Below, piece by piece: positions 6,851 to 63,237 of a stretch of DNA of 64,000 bases. The stretch comes from Candidatus Microgenomates bacterium. Its GTDB lineage: Bacteria; Patescibacteriota; Microgenomatia; JACQLA01. The stretch is from contig JACQLA010000003.1 of NCBI GenBank assembly GCA_016204255.1, forward strand, positions 42,255 to 106,254, in the 5' to 3' direction. Every line of letters starts with the position of its first letter. Positions within the stretch are counted from its first letter, which is position 1. The notes beneath the pieces were generated by a model. It saw only the letters and a program-made list of their open reading frames with translations. It had not been told where the DNA came from and did not search any database. A program made the position numbers and the translations under genes.

Positions 6851-7465
6851 ATGGAATTTTTTTTCGGATGGGTTACGGATTTTATCGAGACCGTCAGCTA
6901 TTGGGGAATTTTTCTTTTGATGTTGCTTGAATCCGCTTGCATCCCGATTCCTTCGGAAATCACTATGCCGTTTGGTGGATTTTTGGCCGCACAGGGAAAA
7001 CTTAATTTTATGCTTGTAGTTTTGGCCGGGACAGCCGGGAATCTGGTAGGGTCGCTAATTGCTTATGCATTTGGCTGGTGGGGTCAGGGGCCGATTGTCC
7101 GCAATTCAATCCGCAAATGGGGAAAGTTTGTTTTGATTAGCGAAGACGATCTCGATCGCTCTGAAGCCTGGTTTAATAAGTATGGCGAACTGATTGTTTT
7201 CTTTTCAAGGGTGTTGCCGGTGGTGCGAACTTTTATTTCCGTGCCGGCCGGAATTTCGAAAATGAATATCTGGAAATTTATTCTTTATACCACCTTGGGT
7301 TCTTTTATCTGGTCATTCATTTTGACCCAGTTTGGCGCAACGCTCGGTGAAAACTGGGAGGTGCTTGAAGTTTATTTCCGGAAATTCAATTTTATTATTG
7401 CGGGTTTATTTGTAGTCGCGGCCATGGGGTATTTTTATCACAAAATCAAGAAGTTAAGAGCCTAG
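6851..7465 (+). CDS. DedA-family membrane protein
   Basis: It is a multi-TM protein with the DedA-like core FFSRVLPVVRTFISVPAG. Confidence 0.75.
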   Translation: MEFFFGWVTDFIETVSYWGIFLLMLLESACIPIPSEITMPFGGFLAAQGKLNFMLVVLAGTAGNLVGSLIAYAFGWWGQGPIVRNSIRKWGKFVLISEDDLDRSEAWFNKYGELIVFFSRVLPVVRTFISVPAGISKMNIWKFILYTTLGSFIWSFILTQFGATLGENWEVLEVYFRKFNFIIAGLFVVAAMGYFYHKIKKLRA

Positions 7466-8077
7466 GTATTTGCGAATTAACCCCACAACTTTTCCCTGCA
7501 CTCGGACGTTAGTGGCGTAAATCGGTGACATATCTTTATTTGCGGGCCTTAAACAAACGCGATCTTTTTCAAAATAAATCTTTTTCAAAGTTGCCAAACC
7601 GCTTTCTAAAATCGCCACAACTAAGTCGCCATTTTTAGCATCATCCCGATGCTCTATTACCACATAATCGCCTTCCAAAATCCCATCTTCAATCAGTGAA
7701 GTCCCTTTGACTTGAAGAACAAAGTGGGGTTTGCTTCCTCCCAATAAAGATGGCGAAACCGAAAGATAAGCATCGGGGTCGGTATGCGGCTCAAGTGGCG
7801 CGCCGGCGGCAATAAAGCCCATGATAGGCAGTTGAACACCTTCAGAGGCCATCTTAGGAATTTTGTCGTCAACGATTTCCAAACTTCGGGAAAGTCCGTC
7901 TTTTTTTGTTAAAACACCCTTTTTAATAAGGGTTTCAACATGTTCATAGATTGTGGCGATTGAGGTACCGGTTGATTCACCGATTTCCTTAAGAGTTGGG
8001 GCGTAACCGTAGCGCTGATTGTATTGGGAAATAAATTCTAAAATTTCTCTTTGTTTGCGGTAAAGTACAACGGGCAT
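7454..8077 (-). CDS. lexA: LexA repressor (S24 peptidase)
   Basis: The N-terminal winged HTH (REILEFI..GYAPTLKEIG) is followed by an AAG cleavage-site region and a C-terminal S24 domain (VKGTSLIEDGI..GDLVV). Confidence 0.9.
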   Translation of the reverse strand: MPVVLYRKQREILEFISQYNQRYGYAPTLKEIGESTGTSIATIYEHVETLIKKGVLTKKDGLSRSLEIVDDKIPKMASEGVQLPIMGFIAAGAPLEPHTDPDAYLSVSPSLLGGSKPHFVLQVKGTSLIEDGILEGDYVVIEHRDDAKNGDLVVAILESGLATLKKIYFEKDRVCLRPANKDMSPIYATNVRVQGKVVGLIRKYLGS

Positions 8078-8113
8078 AATTTTTAAAGTTACACAAGCTG
8101 AAGGCGAAGTATA

Positions 8114-8133
8114 TGGTAGAGATCATGTTACCA
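8114..8133. promoter_or_regulatory. candidate LexA operator: palindrome TGGTA-N10-TACCA overlapping the lexA -10 box and likely start site
   Basis: TGGTA at 8114-8118 and TACCA at 8129-8133 are exact reverse complements. The position is what an autoregulatory operator would need. Confidence 0.35.
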
Positions 8134-8152
8134 AAAAAAACCCTTATGTCAA
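8125..8152 (-). promoter_or_regulatory. lexA promoter (TTGACA-16 nt-TAACAT, TG-extended)
   Basis: The minus strand reads TTGACA (8152-8147), then 16 nt, then TGGTAACAT (-10 at 8130-8125). Confidence 0.5.
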
Positions 8153-8219
8153 GAGATAAAAAGGGATCAATTTGTGGTAAAATTGGGTTGCGAATAATCT
8201 GGTTTTAAAGTCCGTTGGC

Positions 8220-8858
8220 TTAAATTTCCGATAACGTGAGTTTTAAAGGAGACTCCGGATCATCTGGAGGATTTTTGTAAATCGAAACTTTACTAAACTG
8301 TCTATTATTAAGATCTACCAAAAATGAGGTTAAACCAGTCACCACATCAGGAGTTAGCTCATGCTCTTCAATGTCGGTGTCTCCAGTAAACCCTCCGCTT
8401 TTATTTATTTTGGCAACTTCAAAATAATACCTCCCCTTCTCGAAATCAAAAAGAATTGTAGAACTAACAGCTTTTCCAAAACCGTCTTCTTCAGCAATAG
8501 TGACAAAATCTTCGGTTTTAGGCGCACTGGTGTAATTTATGAGTTTTGGTTCAATATCAATTCTTCCTTCATTAAGACAGAGTGATACATTCCTTACAAA
8601 AACTGGTTTCGGGTCGCCCTCCGGTGTTCGTATCCCTCCGTAAGGCGCAAAAAGAGCAGTCTCTAATGTGTCTGGAAGATTAATTTCTCCATCATCTTCG
8701 TCACATTCTGCCTCTAAAACAGGAAAACAATGTGCCTGCAGAATGGAAGTTGTTGCTTCTTTAGTTAAACCTCTAGACGCCATAGCCCTTAAAAAGGCTG
8801 CTCTATAATCTTCTCGAGCAGCTAATTCTTGTGGTGATTGTGGGTTTTCTTCTACCAT
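8220..8858 (-). CDS. hypothetical protein (212 aa, acidic)
   Basis: A long ORF with its own canonical promoter. I recognise no family. Confidence 0.5.
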   Translation of the reverse strand: MVEENPQSPQELAAREDYRAAFLRAMASRGLTKEATTSILQAHCFPVLEAECDEDDGEINLPDTLETALFAPYGGIRTPEGDPKPVFVRNVSLCLNEGRIDIEPKLINYTSAPKTEDFVTIAEEDGFGKAVSSTILFDFEKGRYYFEVAKINKSGGFTGDTDIEEHELTPDVVTGLTSFLVDLNNRQFSKVSIYKNPPDDPESPLKLTLSEI

Positions 8859-8867
8859 TCTGCTCAG

Positions 8868-8896
8868 ATATTAGCATACCGCTTCTCCTTTGTCAA
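8868..8896 (-). promoter_or_regulatory. sigma70-type promoter (TTGACA-17 nt-TGCTAATAT); 9 nt separate the -10 box from the ATG
   Basis: The minus strand reads TTGACA (8896-8891), a 17-nt spacer, then TAATAT (8873-8868) with an upstream TG. The ATG is at 8858. Confidence 0.55.
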
Positions 8897-8998
8897 AAGT
8901 ATGAGTCCTACCTAATCCACCCATAGGCTCCTGTTTATGCTTAATAAGAATAGCGCAAGGATTTAAGCTTTGGTTCTTCAGCGCAATTTAGCCTCGAA

Positions 8999-9010
8999 TT
9001 GTGGTAAAAT
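8999..9010 (+). promoter_or_regulatory. extended -10 promoter element TTGTGGTAAAAT upstream of uvrB
   Basis: TGnTAAAAT lies at 9002-9010. The identical 12-mer recurs at 12741-12752 (upstream of uvrA) and at 8172-8183. Confidence 0.45.
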
Positions 9011-9025
9011 TAGCGTGCGGGGGAA

Positions 9026-9100
9026 TCGTCATTGTGAGCAAAGCGAAGTAATCCCATTAAAGATTGCCGCGGGTCGAATTCTCGACCATCGCAATGACAG
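9026..9100. repeat. palindromic intergenic element (GTCATTGTGAGC ... TCGCAATGAC family) in the uvrB leader
   Basis: The left arm CGTCATTGTGAGCAAAGCGAAGTAATC pairs imperfectly with the right arm GATTGCC..CATCGCAATGACAG. It has the same architecture as the elements at 12765 and 54561. Confidence 0.6.
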
Positions 9101-9110
9101 TAAAAACATT

Positions 9111-11147
9111 ATGGATTTTAAACTTCATTCCGATTTTAAGCCGACGGGAGATCAGCCTGAGGCGATTGAAAAACTTGTGGCCGGAGTCAAACGCGGCTTT
9201 AAAAATCAGGTCCTTTTGGGTGTAACCGGCTCGGGTAAAACTTTTACTATTGCCAATGTCATCGCTCAAGTGCAAAAACCGGTGCTGGTGATTTCTCACA
9301 ATAAAACTCTTGCCGGCCAGCTTTATCAGGAATTCCACGAGTTCTTTCCTAAAAATGCCGTTTCATACTTCGTTTCCTATTACGATTATTATCAGCCCGA
9401 GGCGTATGTCCCGCAAACAGATACTTATATTGAAAAGGAAACGGAAATTAACGAAGAAATCGATAAATTACGATTGGCTGCCACAACCAACCTTTTAACC
9501 CGAAAAGATACGCTGGTTGTCGCCTCGGTTTCCTCGATTTATAACCTCGGCTCACCTGTTGAATATGGCCGTTTTATTATTGAACTCGGGCCAAAAATCT
9601 GGAAAGGAGGACTGCGAAATCTGCTTTATAAGCTGACTTATCTCCATTACGCCCGCAATGATTTTGATTTCAAAAGAGGAACTTTTCGCGTCCGGGGCGA
9701 TACTTTGGAGATTTTTCCGGCGTATGAAGATTCGGCTTTGCGACTTGATTTTTTGGGTGATGATCTTCAAAAGATGGAGCGATTTGACCCCATGACCGGA
9801 GAAAAAATCGAAGACTTAGAAAAAACCGTTATCTATCCGGCAAAACATTATATGACCAATCCGGATATTAAAGAAAAAGCAATGGAAGAGATTAAAAACG
9901 ATTTAAAAATTCGGCTTAAAGAACTTAAAAAAGGTGGCAAGCATTTGGAGGCTCACCGTTTGGAAACACGGACAAAATACGATTTAGAAATGATTAAAGA
10001 ATTTGGTTTTTGCCCGGGTATCGAAAATTATTCCCGTTATTTTGACGGCCGCCAACCCGGCGATCCGCCTTATACGTTATTAAATTACTACTCCGCCTCG
10101 TCTACGACGAGCCGAGGCGGGCCTGAGGATTATTTGTTAATCATCGACGAATCCCATCAGACAATTCCCCAGATAAGAGGAATGTACAATGGCGACCGCG
10201 CCCGCAAAGAAGTTTTGGCCGAATATGGTTTTCGCTTGCCTTCGGCTTTGGATAACCGGCCTTTGCGTTTTGAGGAGTTTTTAGAGCGGGTTGGGCAAGT
10301 AATTTATGTTTCCGCCACTCCTAATGATTGGGAAATCAACCTTGCCCGGAAAGAATCACCGGAGGCGATCGTTGAGCAGCTTATTCGTCCGACTGGACTT
10401 TTGGATCCCACAATTTTTATCCGTCCGACAAAAGGTCAGGTTGCGGATTTAACTCGCGAAATTGAAAAAAGAGCTAAAATGAAAGAGCGCGTTTTGGCAA
10501 CCACTTTGACTAAGCGCATGGCGGAAGAGCTGTCCAATTTTCTGGAAGAAAAAGGTATAAAAGTTCATTATCTCCATTCAGAAATTGAAACCTTAGACCG
10601 GGCTGATATTTTAGAGAGTCTAAGAAAAGGAGTTTATGATGTTATTGTCGGAATCAATCTTTTAAGAGAAGGGCTTGATTTACCGGAAGTTTCGCTGGTG
10701 GCTATTTTGGATGCGGATAAAGAAGGGTTTTTAAGATCCAAGACCTCACTTATTCAAGTTATGGGCCGGGCGGCACGAAATGTTAAGGGCGAAGTAATTA
10801 TGTACGCCGATCAAATCACCGGCTCAATGCAGGGGGCCATTGCAGAAATCGAAAGACGACGCAAGATCCAGGAAAAATATAATCTGGCGCACAAAATTAA
10901 GCCGGAAAGTATCCAAAAACCTCTTCGTCCCAGACTTGTTGATCGTCAGGAAAAAGTCCAAGCCATACCTATTGACCTTTATCTTGAAAAAGCAACCATT
11001 GGCACACTTTTGGCTGACGATAAGGAAAAGTTAATTAAGCATTTGACCAAAAAAATGAGGGAAGCCGCAAAGGTCCTGGACTTCGAAACCGCAGCTTTAA
11101 TTCGGGATCAGATTAAGATTTTGAAACATAACGGAGTTCATCTATAA
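9111..11147 (+). CDS. uvrB: excinuclease ABC subunit B
   Basis: It has the [12 protein letters not shown]-terminus, Walker A GVTGSGKT, the DESH box, helicase motifs and a C-terminal UVR domain. The start was moved from 8970 to the ATG at 9111 because the upstream part of the ORF runs through the palindromic element. Confidence 0.95.
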
Positions 11148-11148
11148 T
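11121..11148 (+). promoter_or_regulatory. promoter TTGAAA-16 nt-TATAAT embedded in the last codons of uvrB; 6 nt separate the -10 box from the ATG at 11155
   Basis: TTGAAA lies at 11121-11126 and TATAAT at 11143-11148. Confidence 0.45.
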
Positions 11149-11154
11149 AGGTTC

Positions 11155-12177
11155 ATGACTGAAGATTCAAATTCAAACGGCCCACGAATAAGTCGAAGAA
11201 ATTTCTTAAAGGCTACCGGTTTGGCAATCGGGATGGCCGCAGTTTCACCTAAAGATTCCGCACAATTTTTGCGTGGCCTTATTCCGGAAAAAGTCAAAGA
11301 GGATCTTCTAAGTCCAGAAGAGCTAAAAAAGAATCGTATTAAAATTTATCAAACCCCCAAGACAGAACTTTATTTACGCAGAGGAGTATTAGAATTTCCA
11401 CTATTTAAGGCCGCGGCCGAGGGCAAGTTTGACGAGGTAGCTATTGTTCTCGTTGAACGCCACTCGCTCAATTATAGCGGCTACAAAACATTCCCGGAAG
11501 AACCAAGATTAATGTGGAAAGCCGCGCACGAAACCAAAAAATCTGAAGACTATGAAATCTCTAAAGTAAGTTCACATTATGAAGACGAAATTAAAAAGAG
11601 GGACGAGTGGGTTGAAACACTCCAGAAACTAATCAATCAGGATCCGCCCCTTCCTGAGAATATTGAAGCGGAATATAAAGAATGGATGAACGACTACCGG
11701 TCCCGACAGGAACTTTATCGGAAAATACTCCAGATGCTTGCAGAAAATCCGCAAAAAACCCTGGATTTTGTCTATGATGAAGTAGATGTGCGTTACGGAG
11801 GGATGATAAATGGCTCCGCCGGAGGTCCGGAATTTTTTAAAAAACATCCTGAGTTGGCCAAAAAGGTTTTTATCTATCTTGCAGTTGGAGGGCCACGGGC
11901 ACCTCGGCCGGAAGATTCTTATTTGGATCCAAGATTTCCGATGCCCCGAATACCAGGTTTTACCCTACGACATGAGATATCCCATTATAACTGGGACACC
12001 GGAGTCGTGCATTCCGAGAATGAGTCAGACTCAATGGCCTTTGACAGCATCATAAACGCTTTTAACAAATTTCGTCAAAATGAGGACACCAGCGGCTATC
12101 CATTTGTTTTTGTTAATAAACATGGGGTTACGGTAACCAAGCAGCTCGAGGATAAACAAAAGAGAAATCAGGTCTAA
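11155..12177 (+). CDS. twin-arginine-signal protein with an HExxH motif (putative secreted metallopeptidase-like protein)
   Basis: The N-terminus SRRNFLKATGLAIGMAAV matches the Tat consensus S/T-R-R-x-F-L-K followed by an h-region. HEISH occurs near the C-terminus. I recognise no family beyond this. Confidence 0.55.
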   Translation: MTEDSNSNGPRISRRNFLKATGLAIGMAAVSPKDSAQFLRGLIPEKVKEDLLSPEELKKNRIKIYQTPKTELYLRRGVLEFPLFKAAAEGKFDEVAIVLVERHSLNYSGYKTFPEEPRLMWKAAHETKKSEDYEISKVSSHYEDEIKKRDEWVETLQKLINQDPPLPENIEAEYKEWMNDYRSRQELYRKILQMLAENPQKTLDFVYDEVDVRYGGMINGSAGGPEFFKKHPELAKKVFIYLAVGGPRAPRPEDSYLDPRFPMPRIPGFTLRHEISHYNWDTGVVHSENESDSMAFDSIINAFNKFRQNEDTSGYPFVFVNKHGVTVTKQLEDKQKRNQV

Positions 12178-12178
12178 C

Positions 12179-12235
12179 AAAACCGCGGCCCTGATCCGCG
12201 ATCAAATAAAGATTATTCGGAATGGAAGTGAGTAG
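12179..12235 (+). pseudogene. orphan remnant of a uvrB 3' end (encodes [18 protein letters not shown])
   Basis: It translates to the same UVR-domain tail as the intact uvrB end at 11085-11147 ([20 protein letters not shown]). Across the 33 alignable nt, 25 are identical and all 8 differences are synonymous. Confidence 0.6.
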
Positions 12236-12257
12236 AGATTGACAAGTATTGTAAGAA

Positions 12258-12641
12258 TTGGAATACTGTGTATATAAAGTGAAAAAACTAAGGTCAGTTT
12301 TTATCTATTATCTTATCTTTTTTCTTCCATTTGCGTTGGCAGATCTAATTTATTCCTATTCCCAATCTTCCTGTGTCTCTTTACCCAATTGGTTGCATTA
12401 TCCCTTCTTTTATTACTTTTTGGTTTACGATATGGTGGATAATATTATGCTATTTTTAGTTTCGCTAGGTATACTTATAATTTTGGTGAGCGTGATATTA
12501 AAATTTTCAACCAAGGCGTATTACTCAAGATTGTTCTTCAGCGGAATTGTTGCGGTTCTACTTTATAGTTTCCTAAAATTGGTTACCGCTCTCTTTGGTA
12601 TCAGTATTGAATGCCCCCACACTTTACCGCTCCTTTATTAA
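12258..12641 (+). CDS. hypothetical small membrane protein
   Basis: 127-aa ORF with a TTG start, several hydrophobic helices and AT-rich sequence. The start is uncertain. Confidence 0.4.
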   Translation: MEYCVYKVKKLRSVFIYYLIFFLPFALADLIYSYSQSSCVSLPNWLHYPFFYYFLVYDMVDNIMLFLVSLGILIILVSVILKFSTKAYYSRLFFSGIVAVLLYSFLKLVTALFGISIECPHTLPLLY

Positions 12642-12703
12642 TTGCGGGTGTGGGATAAATTCATCCCTTTACACTCGTCCCGCCAAAATTTAAATAAATG
12701 CTA

Positions 12704-12730
12704 CCCTTCTATCTAACAAGGGCTTTTTTT
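12704..12730 (+). terminator. rho-independent terminator-like hairpin
   Basis: CCCTT (12704-12708) and AAGGG (12718-12722) form a stem that is followed by C and T7. Confidence 0.4.
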
Positions 12731-12740
12731 AGCTTCGATT

Positions 12741-12752
12741 TTGTGGTAAAAT
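12741..12752 (+). promoter_or_regulatory. extended -10 promoter element TTGTGGTAAAAT upstream of uvrA
   Basis: It is the identical 12-mer to 8999-9010. Confidence 0.45.
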
Positions 12753-12764
12753 AAGTGGTTCATT

Positions 12765-12862
12765 TGTCATTCTGAAGGCCGAAGAATCTGGCTTTTTGTG
12801 AAATTTAAACCGGGATTCTTCACTTCGCCATGATTTGATAGGGACTTCGTTCAGAATGACAA
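12765..12862. repeat. palindromic intergenic element (TGTCATTCTGAAGGCCGAAGAATC ... GATTCTTCACTTCG ... CTTCGTTCAGAATGACAA) in the uvrA leader
   Basis: The outer arms GTCATTCTGAA / TTCAGAATGAC and the inner arms GAAGAATC / GATTCTTC are reverse complements. Confidence 0.6.
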
Positions 12863-12891
12863 CAATATACTCAGGATGGCATAAAAAAACC

Positions 12892-15774
12892 ATGAACAAG
12901 ATCATAATCAAAGGCGCCAGAGTACACAATCTTAAAAATATTGACGTTGAAATCCCTAAAGACAAATTGGTTGTTTTTACCGGTATTTCCGGGTCGGGAA
13001 AATCTTCCCTGGCTTTTGATACGATTTATGCCGAGGGACAAAGACGATACGTTGAATCGCTTTCTGCCTATGCGCGCCAATTTCTGGGTGTAATGGACAA
13101 ACCCGATGTTGACCTGATCGAAGGTCTTTCGCCAGCGATTTCGATTGACCAAAAGTCCGGTTCCCACAACCCCCGATCAACTGTCGGCACCATCACCGAA
13201 ATTTATGATTTTTTACGTCTCCTTTTTGCCCGCGTGGGTCATCCGCATTGCCCTAATTGCGGCCGGGAAATTTCAAGCTTAAGCCGGGAGCAAATTATTA
13301 ATGCCTCTTTGTCACTGGGCGAAAAACGTAAGAAACCTCCGGTTAGAGTTTTGATCTTGGCCCCCCTTATCCGCGATAGGAAAGGCGAGTATCGTGATCT
13401 TTTTGAAGATTTGCGAAAAAAAGGATACCGCAGGGTCAGAGTTGACGGGCAGGTTTTTTCTTTGGATGAAGAGTTTGTTTTGCTTAAAACAAACAAACAT
13501 ACCATCGAGGCAGTTATCGACCGACTGATTCTGGACAAAAATCTGGATCGTTCCCGGCTTTCCCAATCGCTTGAAACAGCCTTAAAGCTCGGGGAGGGCG
13601 AGGTAATAGTTTCGGAAGTTTTAGACGCTTCGTTTGAATTCCCGGAAAAACCGAAAAAATTTGAGGAGCATCTTTTTTCAGAAAAATTTGCCTGTCCGGT
13701 CTGTAATATTTCAATTGCCCAAATTGAGCCACGGACATTTTCCTTTAACTCGCCTCACGGCGCCTGTCCGACTTGCTCCGGCATCGGCAATCTTTTAAAA
13801 GTTGATCCGGAGTTGATTCTTAACCCGCGACTTTCGATTTCCGAGGGAGGAATCCTGCCCTTTAGCCGTTTATTTGATCATGAAACCTGGTTTTCGCGAA
13901 TTCTAAAGGAGGCTTTTAAAACGCACGGGATTGATATCAAAAATTTGCTGGGGGCGTTGACTGATGAGCAGAGAAAGATCCTTCTTTATGGAACGGGAGA
14001 AGAAGTTTATACCGTGTCGGGACGGAATCGCTTTGGCCGCTCAACAACAGTCCGCGATGTCTATTTGGGCATAATTGCTGAGCTTGAACGACGTTATCAG
14101 GAAACCGACTCGGATTTTGTCAGGGCGGAAATTGAAAAATATATGCGTTGGGAAGTTTGTCCGCAGTGTCAGGGCGGCCGGCTTAAAAAAGAGGCACTGT
14201 CTATCACTATTGATGAAAAAACAATTGTTGATATCAGCAACTTCGCAATGGAGGATCTTGGGAATTGGCTGGAACAAATCTGGCATAAATTCAACGAGCG
14301 GGAAGAAACAATTGCCAAACCGATTTTTAAAGAGCTTAAAAGTCGGGTGAAATTTTTACTGGACGTCGGTCTGGATTATTTAACAATCGGGCGTTCCGCA
14401 GTTTCTCTGGCCGGAGGGGAGGCGCAAAGAATTCGACTTGCTTCCCAAATTGGATCCGGACTTTCGGGTGTTTTGTATGTTTTAGATGAACCATCAATAG
14501 GTTTACACCAGCGTGATAATCAACGATTGATCCATTCATTGCAAAACCTTCGGGAGCTGGGAAACACGGTGATTGTGGTTGAGCATGACCGGGAAATGAT
14601 GGAATCGGCTGATTGGATTTTCGATTTCGGCCCGGGAGCCGGAGAAAATGGTGGTAAAGTCATTGCCCAGGGGACGCCTAGTCAGATAAAAAGCGACCCC
14701 AATTCTTTAACCGGAAAATATCTATCGGAACAGAAGCAAATTGGGGCTCAAAGTTCGGAGCATTCCGGAACCACAAGACACAATCATTTGGTTATTTTAG
14801 GAGCCTCCGACCATAACCTTAAAAAAATTGATGTCACCTTTCCGTTGGGAAAACTTATTTGCATCACGGGCGTTTCCGGATCCGGCAAGTCAACTTTGAT
14901 TGTCGACACCTTATATCACGCATTAATGCTGCATTTTAATCCCTTCCACAAAGAAAAACCCGGTACCTGCAAAGGACTTTTAGGAGCGGAGAAACTAAAT
15001 AAAACGATTCTGATTGATCAATCGCCCATTGGCAGGACTCCTCGATCAAATCCGGCAACTTACACCGGCGCATTCACTTATATCCGTGATACTTTTGCTC
15101 AGACACAGGAAGCACGAATTAAAGGTTATAAACCCGGCCGGTTTTCTTTTAATGTTCGTGGCGGTCGTTGTGAAGCTTGTCAAGGAGAGGGACAAATTAA
15201 GATTGAGATGCAGTTTTTGCCGGACGTTTATGTGACCTGTGAGGTTTGCCAGGGCGCGCGTTATACCAGCGATGCACTAGAAGTTAATTATAAAGGAAAA
15301 AATATTGCCGATGTTTTACAAATGACGGTTGATGAGGCTACTGAGTTTTTTACCAATATTCCGCCCCTCCACACCAAATTACTGACGCTAAAGGAGGTTG
15401 GGTTGGGTTATATTCGATTGGGTCAACCGGCGCCTACTCTTTCCGGCGGTGAAGCCCAGAGAGTAAAGTTATCCGCTGAATTGAGTAAAAAATCCACCGG
15501 TCATACCCTTTATCTTTTAGATGAACCTACGACCGGTTTGCACTTTGCCGATTTAGAAAAACTTCTATATGTTCTGCGTCGTCTGGTTGCCAACGGCAAT
15601 ACAGTTTTAGTGATTGAGCATAATTTAGACATCATTAAAAATGCCGATTGGATTATTGATTTAGGTCCCGAAGGCGGAGACAAAGGAGGCCAGATAGTTG
15701 CCCAGGGAACACCAAAAGAGGTATCATTGAATGATAAGTCCTACACTGGCCAATTTTTGAAAAAGGTCTTGTAG
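12892..15774 (+). CDS. uvrA: excinuclease ABC subunit A
   Basis: It has the [27 protein letters not shown]-terminus, two ABC modules and zinc-finger CxxC pairs. The start was moved from 12835 to the ATG at 12892 because the upstream part is repeat-derived. Confidence 0.95.
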
Positions 15775-15801: not shown

Positions 15802-17637
15802 ATGAAATTTTGGAAAATTGCCCTTTCCCTTTTTTGCTCTTTATTTCTTTTTTTAGGTCTTTATTCTTCGGTGCTGGCTGAAGAAAGCTCAAGCAAAGCC
15901 TACACCGTTACTTACGAGGTTGTTGAAAGCGGGCAAACGACCGTTACCTACCAAATCGCCCTCACCAATTTAAGTACGCAAACGTTTACCACCGGCTACG
16001 GGATTACTTTATACTCAACCCAAATTTCCGACGTTCGGGCTGCCGATCGGTTGGGCCTAATTCAGCCGGAAGTAACCAAGGATGATGAAAAAACAGAAAT
16101 CAAATTTAATTTCAACGATGTCGTTGTCGGCAAAGGCCGGGTTTTGAATTTTACTTTTTCATTTAAGACACCGGAAATCGCCAACAAAAGCGGACGCATT
16201 TGGGAAATCAATATTCCCGCTAAAGATGAGGAAAGCTCCGTTACGCGGTATGATGTGATATTAAAAGTACCCCCAAGTTTTGGGAAACCGGCATATCTTT
16301 CTCCTCAGCCCATCCAAGGTCTTTTATGGTCAAAAGAACAGGTTAAAGGTGGGATTACCGCAGCCTTTGGTCAATATCAGATCTCAAACTTTATACTTAA
16401 CTATCATTTGAAAAATCCACAAACCCGGCCGGTATACACCGAAATTACTCTCCCTTCAGATACGGCTTACCAGCGGATAAAGTTTAATGTAATTAAGCCC
16501 GAGCCCATATCACTGCGCGTGGATGAAGACGGAAACTGGCTGGCGCGATACAATCTTGATCCGAAGGAAAAACTTAATATTCAAGTCTCCGGCCTTGTCA
16601 AACTTAGTTATATTCCAGACCCAACTTATCAAACTAAGCACGCCGATCTTAAAAGATATCTTGAAAAGCAAGAATATTGGGAGTCGGATGATGAGCAAAT
16701 TAAAAAATTAGCGCGCGAGCTTAAAATCCCCCGGGCAATCTATGACTATGTCGTATCAACGCTTGAATACAGTTACGATAAGGCTCTTAAAGGAGACAAG
16801 CGTCAGGGCGCAAAAAAAGCCATCGAAAAATCTGATTGGGCGGTTTGCATGGAATTTACCGATCTTTTTATAGCTTTAGCCCGGGCCGCCGGGATCCCTG
16901 CCCGCGAGGTGGACGGATTTGCCTATACCACCAACTCGAAGTTACGCCCTCTTTCACTGGAAAATGATGTTTTGCATACCTGGCCTGAATATTGGGATGA
17001 GGAGAAAAAAATCTGGATAATGGTTGATCCGACATGGGCGGATACAACCGGCGGCATTAATTATTTTGATAAACTTGATTTTAATCATTTTGCGCTTGCC
17101 ATTAAAGGTCTTTCTTCGGAGACACCCTTTCCGGCTGGAACCTATAAAATCGATGGTAGTGAAGGTAAGGACGTTACAGTTGAACCTTCGAATCAGGAGT
17201 GGACGGAGGAAAAAACTGACCTCGATGTTAATTTTAACCTGCCTAAAACCATTCTTTCCGGAATCACTTTGGGGGGATCAGTTTCGGTTACCAATAAGGG
17301 GAGTACGGCGATTTATAATAAACAACTGGAAATTGTCTCTTCAGATTTACCGATTGAAAATCAGACTAAGGTAATTAAATCACTGGCCCCAATGGAGACT
17401 ATCGATATTCCCTTTAGGTTTCCCGGCTCGGGATTGTTTAACGGAATTGAAAATACCGTGATGTTAAAAATTGATGGGCAGCAATTTGAAAAGAAAATAC
17501 AGGTTGCACCTTTGGGGTGGGTGGCAATCGCCTCGCTCGGGAGTATTCTTGGTATTTTTACATCAGCCGCTCTTTTAATTAGAAGGAGACGGCAAAAGAA
17601 GTATAATGGCACTACACAAATCGCAGATACAGTATAA
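15802..17637 (+). CDS. transglutaminase-like domain surface protein (N-terminal signal, C-terminal TM anchor)
   Basis: The core WAVCMEFTDLFIALARAAGIPAREVDGF is typical of transglutaminase-like cysteine proteases. It has a signal-like N-terminus from the ATG at 15802 and a C-terminal TM followed by RRRRQKK. Confidence 0.7.
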   Translation: MKFWKIALSLFCSLFLFLGLYSSVLAEESSSKAYTVTYEVVESGQTTVTYQIALTNLSTQTFTTGYGITLYSTQISDVRAADRLGLIQPEVTKDDEKTEIKFNFNDVVVGKGRVLNFTFSFKTPEIANKSGRIWEINIPAKDEESSVTRYDVILKVPPSFGKPAYLSPQPIQGLLWSKEQVKGGITAAFGQYQISNFILNYHLKNPQTRPVYTEITLPSDTAYQRIKFNVIKPEPISLRVDEDGNWLARYNLDPKEKLNIQVSGLVKLSYIPDPTYQTKHADLKRYLEKQEYWESDDEQIKKLARELKIPRAIYDYVVSTLEYSYDKALKGDKRQGAKKAIEKSDWAVCMEFTDLFIALARAAGIPAREVDGFAYTTNSKLRPLSLENDVLHTWPEYWDEEKKIWIMVDPTWADTTGGINYFDKLDFNHFALAIKGLSSETPFPAGTYKIDGSEGKDVTVEPSNQEWTEEKTDLDVNFNLPKTILSGITLGGSVSVTNKGSTAIYNKQLEIVSSDLPIENQTKVIKSLAPMETIDIPFRFPGSGLFNGIENTVMLKIDGQQFEKKIQVAPLGWVAIASLGSILGIFTSAALLIRRRRQKKYNGTTQIADTV

Positions 17638-17772
17638 TCCGTTACCCAAGCCGCAAGCGTAGTATAATTAGGACATAAACTGTCAGAAATATAATTTTCT
17701 ACTGCCCCTGCCGAAATCTGGCGCTTCAATCCAAAGTTCAAAAACAAAAATATAACCCGTTTTAGGTATAAA

Positions 17773-41830: not shown

Positions 41831-41839
41831 TCACCACCG

Positions 41840-41848
41840 ATTTTAGCA
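41840..41848 (-). promoter_or_regulatory. extended -10 element TGCTAAAAT, 9 nt upstream of the dinB ATG
   Basis: The minus strand reads TGCTAAAAT-CGGTGGTGA-ATG. Confidence 0.4.
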
Positions 41849-41872
41849 GATTTTCCCAAGATGAGTTAAAAT

Positions 41873-42970
41873 ATGGGCATTGTGGAAACACCAGAAGAAA
41901 GAATTGCAGCCATAGAAAAAGAAATTCGCGAAACCGCCTATCACAAAGGCACGGAGCATCACATTGGCAAGTTACGCGCCCGCATTGCCCGAATAAAAGA
42001 CGAGATACAGGAAAAAAAGAGTAAGGGTAGCGGGGGAGGCGGGGGTTTTGCCGTCCGCAAATCCGGGGACGCCACGGTGGTTTTTGTCGGACCGCCATCG
42101 GTTGGTAAGTCGACTCTTTTAAACAAGCTAACCAATGCTCAGTCAAAAGTTGCGGCTTATGAGTTTACGACGCTTGACGTTATTCCCGGCATGATGGATT
42201 ACAAAGGCGCCAAAATCCAGATTTTTGATCTGCCCGGAATTATCGGCGGAGCGGCTAAAGGCAAGGGAAGAGGCCGGGAAATTCTATCTGTAGCCAGAAG
42301 TGCTGATTTGCTGATCATTATCGTGGATCCCAAAACATATCCGACGCTTCCCCAAATCTATGAGGAACTCCGGGAAGCCGGATTACGGCTGGATGATACT
42401 CCTCCTAAAGTCATTATTAATAAACAACTTAAAGGTGGTCTCACAATTATTTCAGGGGCCAAACTTAGTCAAGAAACGATTAAAGAGGTGGCGCATGAAT
42501 TTCGCCTGGGTAATGTGGAAATTATAATTAAAGAGAACATCACATTAGAAAGACTTATTGATTCTTTCCTCGGAAATCGCGTTTACTTACCCAGTTTTAC
42601 GATTTTAAATAAAGTAGACCTCTTAAAAAGAGAGCCTTCAGACAATGATTTATTTTTAATAAGCGCGGATAAGGAAATTGGACTTGATACTTTGAGGGAA
42701 AAAATCTTTGAAAGTCTTAAGCTCTTTCCGGTTTTTCTTAAACCCCAGGGAGGGGAACCTGATCTTAAAACTCCTTTAATTTTGAGAAATGGTGCGACTG
42801 TTTTGACCGCCGCCCAGAAAGTTCATGGCGAAATTGCGGACAACATTAAAAGCGCCCAGATTTGGGGCCCATCGGCAAAATTTCCAGGCCAACTTGTTTC
42901 TTTAAATCATCCACTCCAAAGTGGAGACATTATCACCTTTTTGACTAAGGAAAAAGTGTTTGCATTTTAA
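41873..42970 (+). CDS. DRG-type (developmentally regulated GTP-binding protein-like) GTPase with a C-terminal TGS domain
   Basis: The N-terminal region EKEIRETAYHKGTEHHIGKLRARIARIKDE is followed by G1 GPPSVGKST, G3 DLPG, G4 NKVD and a TGS-like tail. Confidence 0.8.
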   Translation: MGIVETPEERIAAIEKEIRETAYHKGTEHHIGKLRARIARIKDEIQEKKSKGSGGGGGFAVRKSGDATVVFVGPPSVGKSTLLNKLTNAQSKVAAYEFTTLDVIPGMMDYKGAKIQIFDLPGIIGGAAKGKGRGREILSVARSADLLIIIVDPKTYPTLPQIYEELREAGLRLDDTPPKVIINKQLKGGLTIISGAKLSQETIKEVAHEFRLGNVEIIIKENITLERLIDSFLGNRVYLPSFTILNKVDLLKREPSDNDLFLISADKEIGLDTLREKIFESLKLFPVFLKPQGGEPDLKTPLILRNGATVLTAAQKVHGEIADNIKSAQIWGPSAKFPGQLVSLNHPLQSGDIITFLTKEKVFAF

Positions 42971-54168: not shown

Positions 54169-54492
54169 TCACGACAGAAAAGTGACAGTGATTATTGCGG
54201 CCCCAAAGAAAATGGATAAGTTACACAACATCACGATTAGACTAAATCTGGGTTTGCCATATTTTGTGTTAACCACAACAACTGTGCCACCTATCACCAA
54301 AGCAAAACCAACTGCCATAAATATTTCTTTAGAGGTGACTGAGACCAGAAGTGCCCCTAGAGTAGCTAATACGCCTCCACAGCTGTGTACCAACGTTGTT
54401 AAACGCGATGAGCGAGTAAGCAATATCAGGCCTAAAAGGCCTAGGACTACTCCTAAGACAAGGCATGTAAAACCCAAAACTATTAATAGCAT
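54169..54492 (-). CDS. small membrane protein (107 aa, about 4 TM helices), first gene of the island operon
   Basis: The SD is AAGGAGAAAGGAAAA-ATG. Confidence 0.55.
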   Translation of the reverse strand: MLLIVLGFTCLVLGVVLGLLGLILLTRSSRLTTLVHSCGGVLATLGALLVSVTSKEIFMAVGFALVIGGTVVVVNTKYGKPRFSLIVMLCNLSIFFGAAIITVTFLS

Positions 54493-54524
54493 TTTTCCTT
54501 TCTCCTTTTGGTTTTTTTAACCTT

Positions 54525-54695
54525 CCAATTTAGCTCCCCTGCCGGGTAGAAACGGGAATAGTCATTTCGAATGAAATGAGAAATCTAGGCACGCAGTGCC
54601 GCAAACATTATTACGCATCGCTAGATTTCTCGCCCCGAAGAATCGGGTCTCGAAATGACAGTGTACTTTTCTGCCCAAGAGGGGAGCGTGATTGG
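54525..54695. repeat. about 170-nt long imperfect palindrome built around a GTCATTTCGA ... TCGAAATGAC element
   Basis: There are two perfect stems: GTCATTTCGA (54561-54570) with TCGAAATGAC (54650-54659), and GAGAAATCTAG (54578-54588) with CTAGATTTCTC (54621-54631). Outer pairing adds GCTCCCCT with AGGGGAGC and CCAAT with ATTGG. Confidence 0.65.
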
Positions 54696-54875
54696 AAATT
54701 CAAGAAGAAAGATTTTATGCCCCCGAAATGTTAAAGTGCCCCCGTCGTTTTTAATTCTTCCCTTATATAACCCGCAAATGGGTTTTAAAAGAAAAATCTA
54801 ACGGGAATCTTTAGCCATCTCAGTTTGGACTTCGCTTAAAAAGTCTCTGAAAACAGCTAAAGCTCCGATCTTTTT

Positions 54876-62825: not shown

Positions 62826-63237
62826 TTGTTAACGTAATTATAACCCATAGATGAAGTGGGCTATGGTAATTGACAAAGGGACTAACTTAGAATATATTTC
62901 GAGCTATGAGACCACTAGGAGAATTACTAAGCCGGGTTTCGCATAAAACGCAGTCAGAATGGAGAAGAATGGCAATTACTCGTCGATCCTGACCTCAAAC
63001 GAGTCCATCTATATTATCGGGTTGGGGAAGCAGATTTTACTTTGGAGGGTGTAGATAAAGTTACAATCTCTAGTAAGAACAGAGCCGTGTGCTTTAATGG
63101 TTATGGAGGTTCTTTAGAAGTGTCGTTCTTTTGGCCCAAAAAAGCCACAATAAAAGCTGGGGGGCTAAAAGCTGAAATCCCCTTCGACCAACCCGCTGAA
63201 CGCATAAGATATTCCGATTAAAATCTGCGATCATTTG

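Follow-up and report, generated by a model that had tools for sequence, protein, structure and literature searches.

Leaderless mRNAs are frequent in Actinobacteria, Deinococcus and archaea. Known LexA boxes consist of two half-sites, arranged either as a dyad or as a direct repeat, and the SOS network of the Patescibacteria is reportedly the subject of a published study by Sanchez-Osuna et al. from 2017 (cited in PMC7739468). Repeats with GTCATT..AATGAC-type ends are common in uncultured bacteria, where they are often mistranslated into small open reading frames. In Gram-positive bacteria, extended -10 promoters follow the consensus 5'-TRTGNTATAAT-3', located 6-8 nt upstream of the start site (PMC5036317), and a Correia repeat enclosed element (CREE) lying 5' of gonococcal uvrB supplies a promoter (PMC2649163). 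Here we analyse the uvrB and uvrA genes on a 64-kb stretch of DNA (hereafter the window) from a Candidatus Microgenomates genome (Patescibacteria). Each gene is preceded by the same 12-mer, TTGTGGTAAAAT, followed by a palindromic element with GTCATT..AATGAC ends. Quite probably, the 12-mer is a conserved extended -10 promoter behind which palindromes were independently inserted, and a further copy of it, at 8172, was stranded by a segment carrying the gene orf212.

Results

A conserved extended -10 motif at uvrB and uvrA

Exact copies of TTGTGGTAAAAT are found at three places in the window, all on the + strand, all non-coding and all inside 4.6 kb, where they adjoin lexA, uvrB and uvrA. The sites and genes are as follows.

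8999..9010, + strand: putative uvrB promoter, a TRTGn-extended -10 element (TTGTGG-TAAAAT) with no usable -35; exact match, uvrB orthologues carrying TGTGG, TGTGA, TGTGT or TATGG followed by TAAAAT
12741..12752, + strand: putative uvrA promoter, the identical extended -10 element; exact match, with counterparts at uvrA of relatives L086 and L089
8172..8183, + strand: putative stranded copy of the uvrB promoter, at the ancestral site and divergent from the adjacent lexA promoter; exact match, with left-flank homology
7454..8077, - strand: lexA (Pfam LexA_DNA_bind and Peptidase_S24), identical to the NCBI Candidatus Microgenomates LexA
9111..11147, + strand: uvrB coding sequence (Pfam UvrB_inter, UvrB and UVR); start homologous to the MxFKL starts of relatives by 5'-end alignment
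12892..15774, + strand: uvrA coding sequence (Pfam UvrA_inter and UvrA_DNA-bind); N-terminus (10 residues) matching relatives

The triple occurrence proves nothing alone, because 18 canonical 12-mers are present at least three times in the window. We considered chance and decided against it on the grounds of location and conservation. The three non-coding sites cluster near lexA, uvrB and uvrA; the exact 11-mer TRTGNTAAAAT has three matches in the 64 kb, which are these sites only; and relatives keep the motif at the orthologous positions. Together, clustering, exclusivity and conservation place the motif beyond chance.

The relatives were obtained by a LexA protein search, which returned sequences at 61-80% identity, and contigs L084-L090 and L093-L096 were examined. 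Seven of them (L084, L085, L086, L088, L089, L090 and L093), with LexA 65-80% identical, make up the close clade. L094 and L095 (LexA 61%) and the Gottesmanbacteria L002 and L004 (LexA about 55%) are more distant, and L091 and L092 represent the same strain (100% identity) and were uninformative. At 100% identity, the strain also occurs at the sites sampled in SRR4343428 and SRR12113385. A UvrB scan of species-representative genomes gave a best identity of 60%, and a LexA scan of JGI metagenomes one of 39%.

In all seven close-clade relatives, TRTGnTAAAAT lies 6-9 nt before the uvrB start codon:

L084: TGTGATAAAAT, 8 nt to the start codon
L085: TATGGTAAAAT, 9 nt to the start codon
L086: TGTGGTAAAAT, 6 nt to the start codon
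L088: TTATGGTAAAAT, 9 nt to the start codon
L089: TTATGGTAAAAT, 9 nt to the start codon
L090: TGTGTTAAAAT, 6 nt to the start codon
L093: TTGTGGTAAAAT, 9 nt to the start codon

The Gottesmanbacteria have TGTGTTAAAAT at 20 (L002) and 15 nt (L004) upstream of uvrB. At uvrA, the motif is TGTGATAAAAT in L086, followed by 10 nt and ATG, and TTATGGTAAAAT in L089, followed by 33 nt and ATG. An alignment of eight sequences (A1) has the invariant columns T-x-T-G-x-TAAAAT, with variation confined to the R and N of the consensus; the TAAAAT hexamer, including A2 and T6, does not vary. All three TTGTGGTAAAAT sites have TG one base upstream of the -10 hexamer and TR before that TG. In the more distant L094 and L095 the motif is replaced by other -10 forms, such as TGcTATAAT, and this drift to other extended -10 forms suggests that the motif behaves as a promoter and not as the site of a regulator.

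A -35/-10 scan of the window did not call the TTGTGGTAAAAT sites, although it called the lexA, orf212 and orf340 promoters. The sequence 17 nt upstream of the 12-mer is cgcaat at uvrB and tttttt at uvrA. To be missed by a scan that depends on a -35 is what would be expected of promoters using an extended -10 alone. These results point to TTGTGGTAAAAT being the conserved core promoter of uvrB and uvrA, of the extended -10 type. The initial annotation of this DNA had reported a 12-mer common to both genes and read it in the same way. The copies are indeed exact (8999-9010 and 12741-12752), and the promoter reading is borne out by retention of the motif at orthologous uvrB and uvrA genes, with only degenerate positions varying.

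Other genes in the window have TGn and TAnnnT 6-10 nt before the start codon. This spacing, also remarked on in the initial annotation, holds for at least a dozen genes. Examples are orf212 (TATGCTAATAT plus 9 nt), orf340 (TATAAT plus 6 nt), dinB (41830, - strand; TCTGCTAAAAT plus 9 nt before the start codon) and the divergent neighbour of dinB (TGAGTTAAAAT plus 9 nt). The spacer of about 50 nt between the last two (41831-41881) accommodates a divergent pair of TAAAAT -10 elements, at 9 nt from either start codon, and is a second example of a compact divergent leaderless layout. Many internal genes of the window lack a Shine-Dalgarno sequence and are A-rich upstream. From the motif-to-start spacing in relatives, we infer that uvrB and uvrA were originally expressed from leaderless or very-short-leader mRNAs.

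Palindromic elements between putative promoter and start codon

In the window, the gap between motif and start codon is occupied at both genes by a palindromic element, and a third member of the family lies elsewhere.

9028..9098, + strand: GTCATT..AATGAC element in the uvrB leader (GTCATTGTGA...TCGCAATGAC); 71 nt, minimum free energy (MFE) -27.6 kcal/mol, z -5.9
12766..12860, + strand: GTCATT..AATGAC element in the uvrA leader (GTCATTCTGAA...TTCAGAATGAC); 95 nt, MFE -29.7 kcal/mol, z -3.2
54561..54659, + strand: third GTCATT..AATGAC family copy, between convergent genes and not in a leader; z -4.8

The uvrB element begins 17 nt behind its 12-mer and leaves 12 nt to the ATG at 9111; for the uvrA element, the corresponding distances are 13 nt and, to the ATG at 12892, 31 nt. 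The three copies found in 64 kb occupy unrelated intergenic sites. They are non-coding, 71-99 nt long and bounded by complementary termini of 10-11 nt (GTCATTnnGA/TCnnAATGAC). The predicted fold is Y-shaped, with an outer stem of 10-11 bp, an AATC/GATT hairpin further in and, carrying a GGGAC-like motif close to the 3' end, a short GC hairpin. The same architecture is present in the copy at 54561, in L085, in L028 (a Thermodesulfovibrionales contig) and in L040 (a Nitrospirae contig).

The element is absent from the uvrB leaders of all seven close-clade relatives and from both of the uvrA leaders examined in that clade (L086 and L089); the more distant syntenic loci had none either. In alignment A1, about 90 columns form a block to which the uvrB leader of the window alone contributes sequence. 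Sequence directly after the 12-mer is still orthologous to that of relatives (uvrB tagc.. versus tagagc; uvrA aagtggttc versus aaagggttc), which indicates that the insertions fell between an existing promoter and the start codon. Two POR-subunit genes have a 4-nt overlap in the window and in L084, but in L085 a composite GTCATT..AATGAC element (2410-2560) stands between them. Since the elements are missing from relatives and turn up at other intergenic sites and in other phyla, the leaders appear to be recent insertions of a mobile palindromic repeat. Furthermore, the uvrB and uvrA elements are alike at their termini only (71 versus 95 nt); being different variants, they would have been inserted independently.

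In the predicted folds of both leaders, the AUG and the A-rich stretch before it are unpaired, from which it follows that the insertions could be tolerated, and we regard the elements as most likely tolerated passengers. Absence from relatives, mobility of the family and predicted folding are direct observations, and neutrality is our interpretation of them. The initial annotation had given the palindromes as 75-100 nt long (9026-9100 and 12765-12862); they are real, if slightly shorter, and folding predicts a stable hairpin in both leaders. Its description of structured leaders of one family also stands, but the elements are independent, different variants that uvrA and uvrB do not keep in close relatives, an absence that it had itself named as refuting evidence. 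Of the two options it had left for them, an effect on translation or mRNA stability and a passenger role, their absence from relatives' leaders favours the second.

A functional role nevertheless deserves consideration. The palindromic leaders might be cis-regulatory RNAs, recruited or retained to co-ordinate uvrA and uvrB as mRNA-stabilising stem-loops or by tuning translation. Two of the three elements in the window are in leaders of excision-repair genes, in sense orientation and near the predicted 5' end, their hairpins are predicted to be very stable, and mobile repeats can alter downstream expression, as does the Correia promoter 5' of gonococcal uvrB (PMC2649163). However, no relative keeps the element in either leader, the two elements differ in length and internal sequence, members of the same family sit in a 3' intergenic spacer and between genes of an operon, no Rfam family matches them, and a small number of permissive sites in the genome would explain where the insertions fell. 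We therefore find a regulatory function for the leaders doubtful.

Intergenic DNA makes up only about 13% of the genome and the lexA-uvrB spacer is filled by two promoters, so that the gap between -10 element and start codon is among the few permissive sites; a double insertion is less surprising as a result. Target preference or selection may lie behind the pair. The third element sits in the loop of a longer hairpin, which would fit a preference for hairpin loops. That the paired insertion is non-accidental, through a preference for sites just behind leaderless promoters or for hairpin loops, or through retention of insertions that give two leaderless excision-repair mRNAs a leader with a protective 5' stem-loop and so change UvrA and UvrB output co-ordinately, or else that TRTGGTAAAAT, near-exclusive to uvrA and uvrB in this clade, is also the site of a damage-responsive regulator, strikes us as rather unlikely.

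Several further observations concern the family. The L085 element lies 19 nt upstream of the start codon of the downstream POR gene and is antisense to the operon. The longer hairpin around the third element spans 54523-54698 (211-nt fold, -81.7 kcal/mol, z -7.7) within a 471-nt gap between convergent genes, an arrangement that resembles nested palindromic repeats. No candidate for a cognate transposase turned up in the window, in which no search was aimed at one. In L084, a gene for an IS200-like Y1 transposase (Y1_Tnp; 632-1327) adjoins uvrB; the AACAGGTSSGACCTGC hairpins on either side of this gene have no relation to the GTCATT elements. Degenerate extra copies at 62866 and 56050 were dropped, as they fold no better than shuffled sequences. 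Candidates for a new promoter arising from the element ends were weak only, namely TAAAAA, which precedes either ATG by 4 nt, and TATACT, 25 nt ahead of uvrA. Rfam gave no match to the elements up to E = 5 in 7900-13100 or 54400-54850, two tRNAs being the only hits to reach the gathering threshold in the whole window, and a literature search on the element termini returned only primers and unrelated sequences.

The third copy of the 12-mer and the lexA promoter

The remaining copy of TTGTGGTAAAAT lies next to lexA, at one end of a segment that holds an orphan gene.

8125..8152, - strand: lexA promoter, TTGACA-16-TAACAT with a conserved G3T8G2 spacer; called by the promoter scan and kept in relatives' lexA loci
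8220..8858, - strand: orf212, orphan gene on the putative inserted segment; only a self-match among 5.8 billion proteins
8868..8896, - strand: orf212 promoter, TTGACA-17-TAATAT, 9 nt before the ATG; called by the promoter scan

Across the clade, lexA and uvrB are divergent neighbours, and in relatives the two promoters face away from each other inside 63-110 nt. Relatives carry the uvrB promoter at the position that the 12-mer at 8172 occupies in the window, 20 nt away from the lexA -35 hexamer. The left flank of this copy shows homology to the uvrB-lexA spacer of L089 and L088. An imperfect direct repeat (8167-8192 versus 8994-9019; 21/26 identity with a 13-nt exact core) bounds the intervening segment. 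orf212, which had no Pfam, PHROG, PADLOC or PDB match, is absent between lexA and uvrB in L084-L086, L088-L090 and L093-L095. In L087, where lexA has other upstream neighbours, the lexA promoter is kept and the 12-mer is absent, which argues that the 12-mer belongs to uvrB and not to lexA. Judged by these alignments, the 8172 copy appears to be the ancestral uvrB promoter site, stranded by an insertion of about 0.8 kb (8184-8998) that carries orf212. The initial annotation had the position and strand of this copy right; it had found no obvious gene downstream, but the site is not gene-less by design, as it sits where relatives have the promoter of uvrB.

Two features lie close to the stranded copy. 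orf212 is directly upstream of lexA on the same strand, and a terminator-like hairpin with a T-run is found at 8253-8269 (+ strand), about 70 nt downstream of the 12-mer. Were the stranded copy active, a short antisense RNA against the 3' end of orf212 could result.

The proximity to lexA raises the question of whether the 12-mer is, or overlaps, a lineage-specific LexA operator (SOS box), in which case LexA bound to -10 regions would co-repress lexA, uvrB and uvrA. All three 12-mers adjoin classic SOS genes, and exact TRTGNTAAAAT hardly occurs outside uvrA and uvrB, either in the window or in relatives. Moreover, the lexA -10 region, TTTTGGTAACAT, matches the 12-mer at 10 of 12 positions, TGGTA is found in most lexA promoters, and the recognition helix, as read from the translation, is unlike that of LexA in E. 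coli or in B. subtilis, so that an unfamiliar motif could be expected. Against this, the 12-mer has neither dyad nor direct-repeat symmetry and no conserved second half-site nearby, and relatives vary it exactly where the promoter consensus is degenerate. It is spaced from the start codon in the manner of other -10 elements, distant relatives substitute other extended -10 variants, it is absent at L087 lexA, which does not adjoin uvrB, and dinB has no copy. Nor does 7900-13100 contain a box of the GAAC-N4-GTTC type. An operator role for the 12-mer thus seems distinctly improbable to us.

Known and shared operators were also looked for directly. The Gram-positive LexA box GAAC-N4-GTTC has 19 matches with up to one mismatch versus 23 expected, none near the locus, and a comparison of the regions upstream of lexA, uvrB, uvrA and dinB showed only their -10 regions to be alike. 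The G3T8G2 spacer of the lexA promoter was not found at uvrA, uvrB or dinB save for an approximate match upstream of uvrA (12719-12732), which we read as the terminator of the preceding gene.

The lexA promoter itself has two further features. Its spacer, GGGTTTTTTTTGG (8131-8144, minus strand), is more conserved than its -10 hexamer; it is present in the lexA promoters of L084-L090, L093, L095 and L003 and persists to 47% LexA identity. It could serve LexA as its own operator or have a structural role as a spacer. An inverted repeat, TGGTA-N10-TACCA (8114-8133), overlaps the lexA -10 hexamer and the predicted start; L086 and L090 have a similar TGGTA-N9-TGCCA and L088 a TGGTA-N9-TACTA, and L084, L085 and L089 have none. 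As candidates for a LexA operator, the GGGTTTTTTTTGG spacer and the partial dyad TGGTA-N9/10-TRCCA would be better than the 12-mer.

Gene order and start codons

Between uvrB and uvrA, the window has two genes without informative domains (11155-12641), orf340, with a weak TAT-signal match, and orf127. In L089, L094, L095, L002 and L004, uvrA follows uvrB directly, and the ancestral cluster appears from these gene orders to have been lexA <-> uvrB-uvrA-transglutaminase-uvrC. Further downstream, GTATAAT or ATATAAT occurs four times with a spacing of about 29 nt (17604-17696), from the end of the transglutaminase-like gene into the spacer that precedes uvrC.

Gene callers lengthen uvrB to 725 amino acids and uvrA to 972 through the elements, which are open in frame (8970-9110 and 12856-12891; gene table of L091). 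The in-frame ATG at 12856 used for uvrA comes from the AATGAC end of the element. These N-terminal extensions of UvrB and UvrA are probably annotation artefacts, and an annotation correction follows, both proteins having been called too long, through the elements.

Discussion

Our results suggest a sequence of events at this locus. The housekeeping sigma factor would recognise TTGTGGTAAAAT with no need of a -35, and transcription would start about 7 nt after 9010 and 12752. In the ancestral state of the lineage, the motif would have stood 6-10 nt (up to about 33 nt) from the start codon, giving leaderless mRNAs or very short leaders. Two different GTCATT...AATGAC copies (71 and 95 nt) would then have been inserted independently between promoter and start codon, such that the leader would now measure about 94 nt in uvrB transcripts and 133 nt in those of uvrA, in both cases with a self-contained hairpin at the 5' side, an unpaired A-rich stretch at the 3' side and an accessible AUG. 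Such leaders would resemble those of the window's other leadered genes without a Shine-Dalgarno sequence. We would expect at most a modest change in mRNA stability or translation, although a 5' stem-loop might stabilise the mRNA. At the other side of orf212, the segment of about 0.8 kb would have stranded the promoter at 8172, leaving an imperfect direct repeat of the promoter at its borders.

A number of points weigh against this model. Conservation and spacing of the motif are observed, and sigma factor usage and the mode of translation are deductions; similarly, the start sites, and with them promoter activity and leader lengths, are inferred. The near-confinement of exact TRTGnTAAAAT to uvrA and uvrB (three of three matches in the window, nine of 11 in about 82 kb of sequence from relatives) could hint at something beyond a generic promoter. 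For the elements, no target-site duplication is seen: their flanks (aatc..agta, attt..aaca and aata..agtg) share no common duplication. Two of the three copies in the window occupy the leaders of uvrB and uvrA, genes of a single pathway; both are in sense orientation and begin 13-17 nt behind the same 12-mer. Under random intergenic insertion this particular pair would be somewhat unlikely, at roughly 0.5% by a post-hoc estimate. Finally, the sequence that follows the stranded copy resembles the uvrB 5' end only weakly (18/25 identity); such a remnant is suggestive but not significant, as 42-77 of 500 shuffles reach the same score, depending on the comparison.

The distance between 12-mer and element, 13-17 nt at both genes, might suggest that the 12-mer travels with the palindrome as an outward-facing promoter and was delivered jointly with it to uvrA and uvrB; this is very improbable, since relatives have the promoter without the element, the elements at 54561 and in L085 have no 12-mer upstream, and the sequence after each 12-mer is orthologous to the respective leader of relatives.

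A conserved promoter with independent insertions behind it amounts to a compact lexA-uvrB control region that was rearranged, and not destroyed, by mobile hairpins and the insertion of an orphan gene in one lineage. In this candidate-phyla-radiation genome, a conserved extended -10 element appears to drive what were leaderless uvrB and uvrA mRNAs, and a promoter consensus is gained for uncultured Microgenomates. The relatives and the window also provide a natural comparison, with and without the element, of the effect of a 5' hairpin on a formerly leaderless gene. We regard the case as an ordinary, though tidy, insertion of mobile DNA between promoter and gene, composed of known kinds of parts and involving no new regulatory principle.

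Several described systems come close to parts of the locus. Extended -10 (TRTGn) promoters read by sigma-A or sigma-70 in Gram-positive bacteria likewise have TRTG one base before a -10 hexamer with A2 and T6 and require no -35 (PMC5036317; PMC6212719). The promoters proposed here differ in the TAAAAT hexamer and the patescibacterial host, and the short distance from element to start codon in relatives would make the mRNA leaderless. Start codons 6-9 nt behind the element in seven relatives would also agree with a transcription start 6-8 nt downstream. A -10 hexamer 6-9 nt before the start codon, as at uvrB of the seven relatives and at many of the window's genes, matches the leaderless layout, whereas uvrB and uvrA here would have secondarily gained leaders of about 94 and 133 nt. 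With SOS boxes and divergent lexA-repair gene layouts the locus shares a motif at lexA, uvrA and uvrB and the clade-wide divergence of lexA and uvrB, but the 12-mer differs in its lack of half-site symmetry and its -10-like behaviour.

The palindromes, in turn, appear to behave like miniature transposable elements with inverted repeats (MITEs) or repetitive extragenic palindromic (REP)-type repeats, with the CREE of Neisseria as the closest parallel. In common with these, they are short, non-coding palindromes with inverted termini that form hairpins, are scattered over intergenic regions, differ in location between related genomes and would be co-transcribed with neighbouring genes. In contrast to the CREE, they have GTCATT/AATGAC termini, no visible TA duplication and an asymmetric Y-shaped predicted fold; they create no evident promoter, and their family spans phyla.

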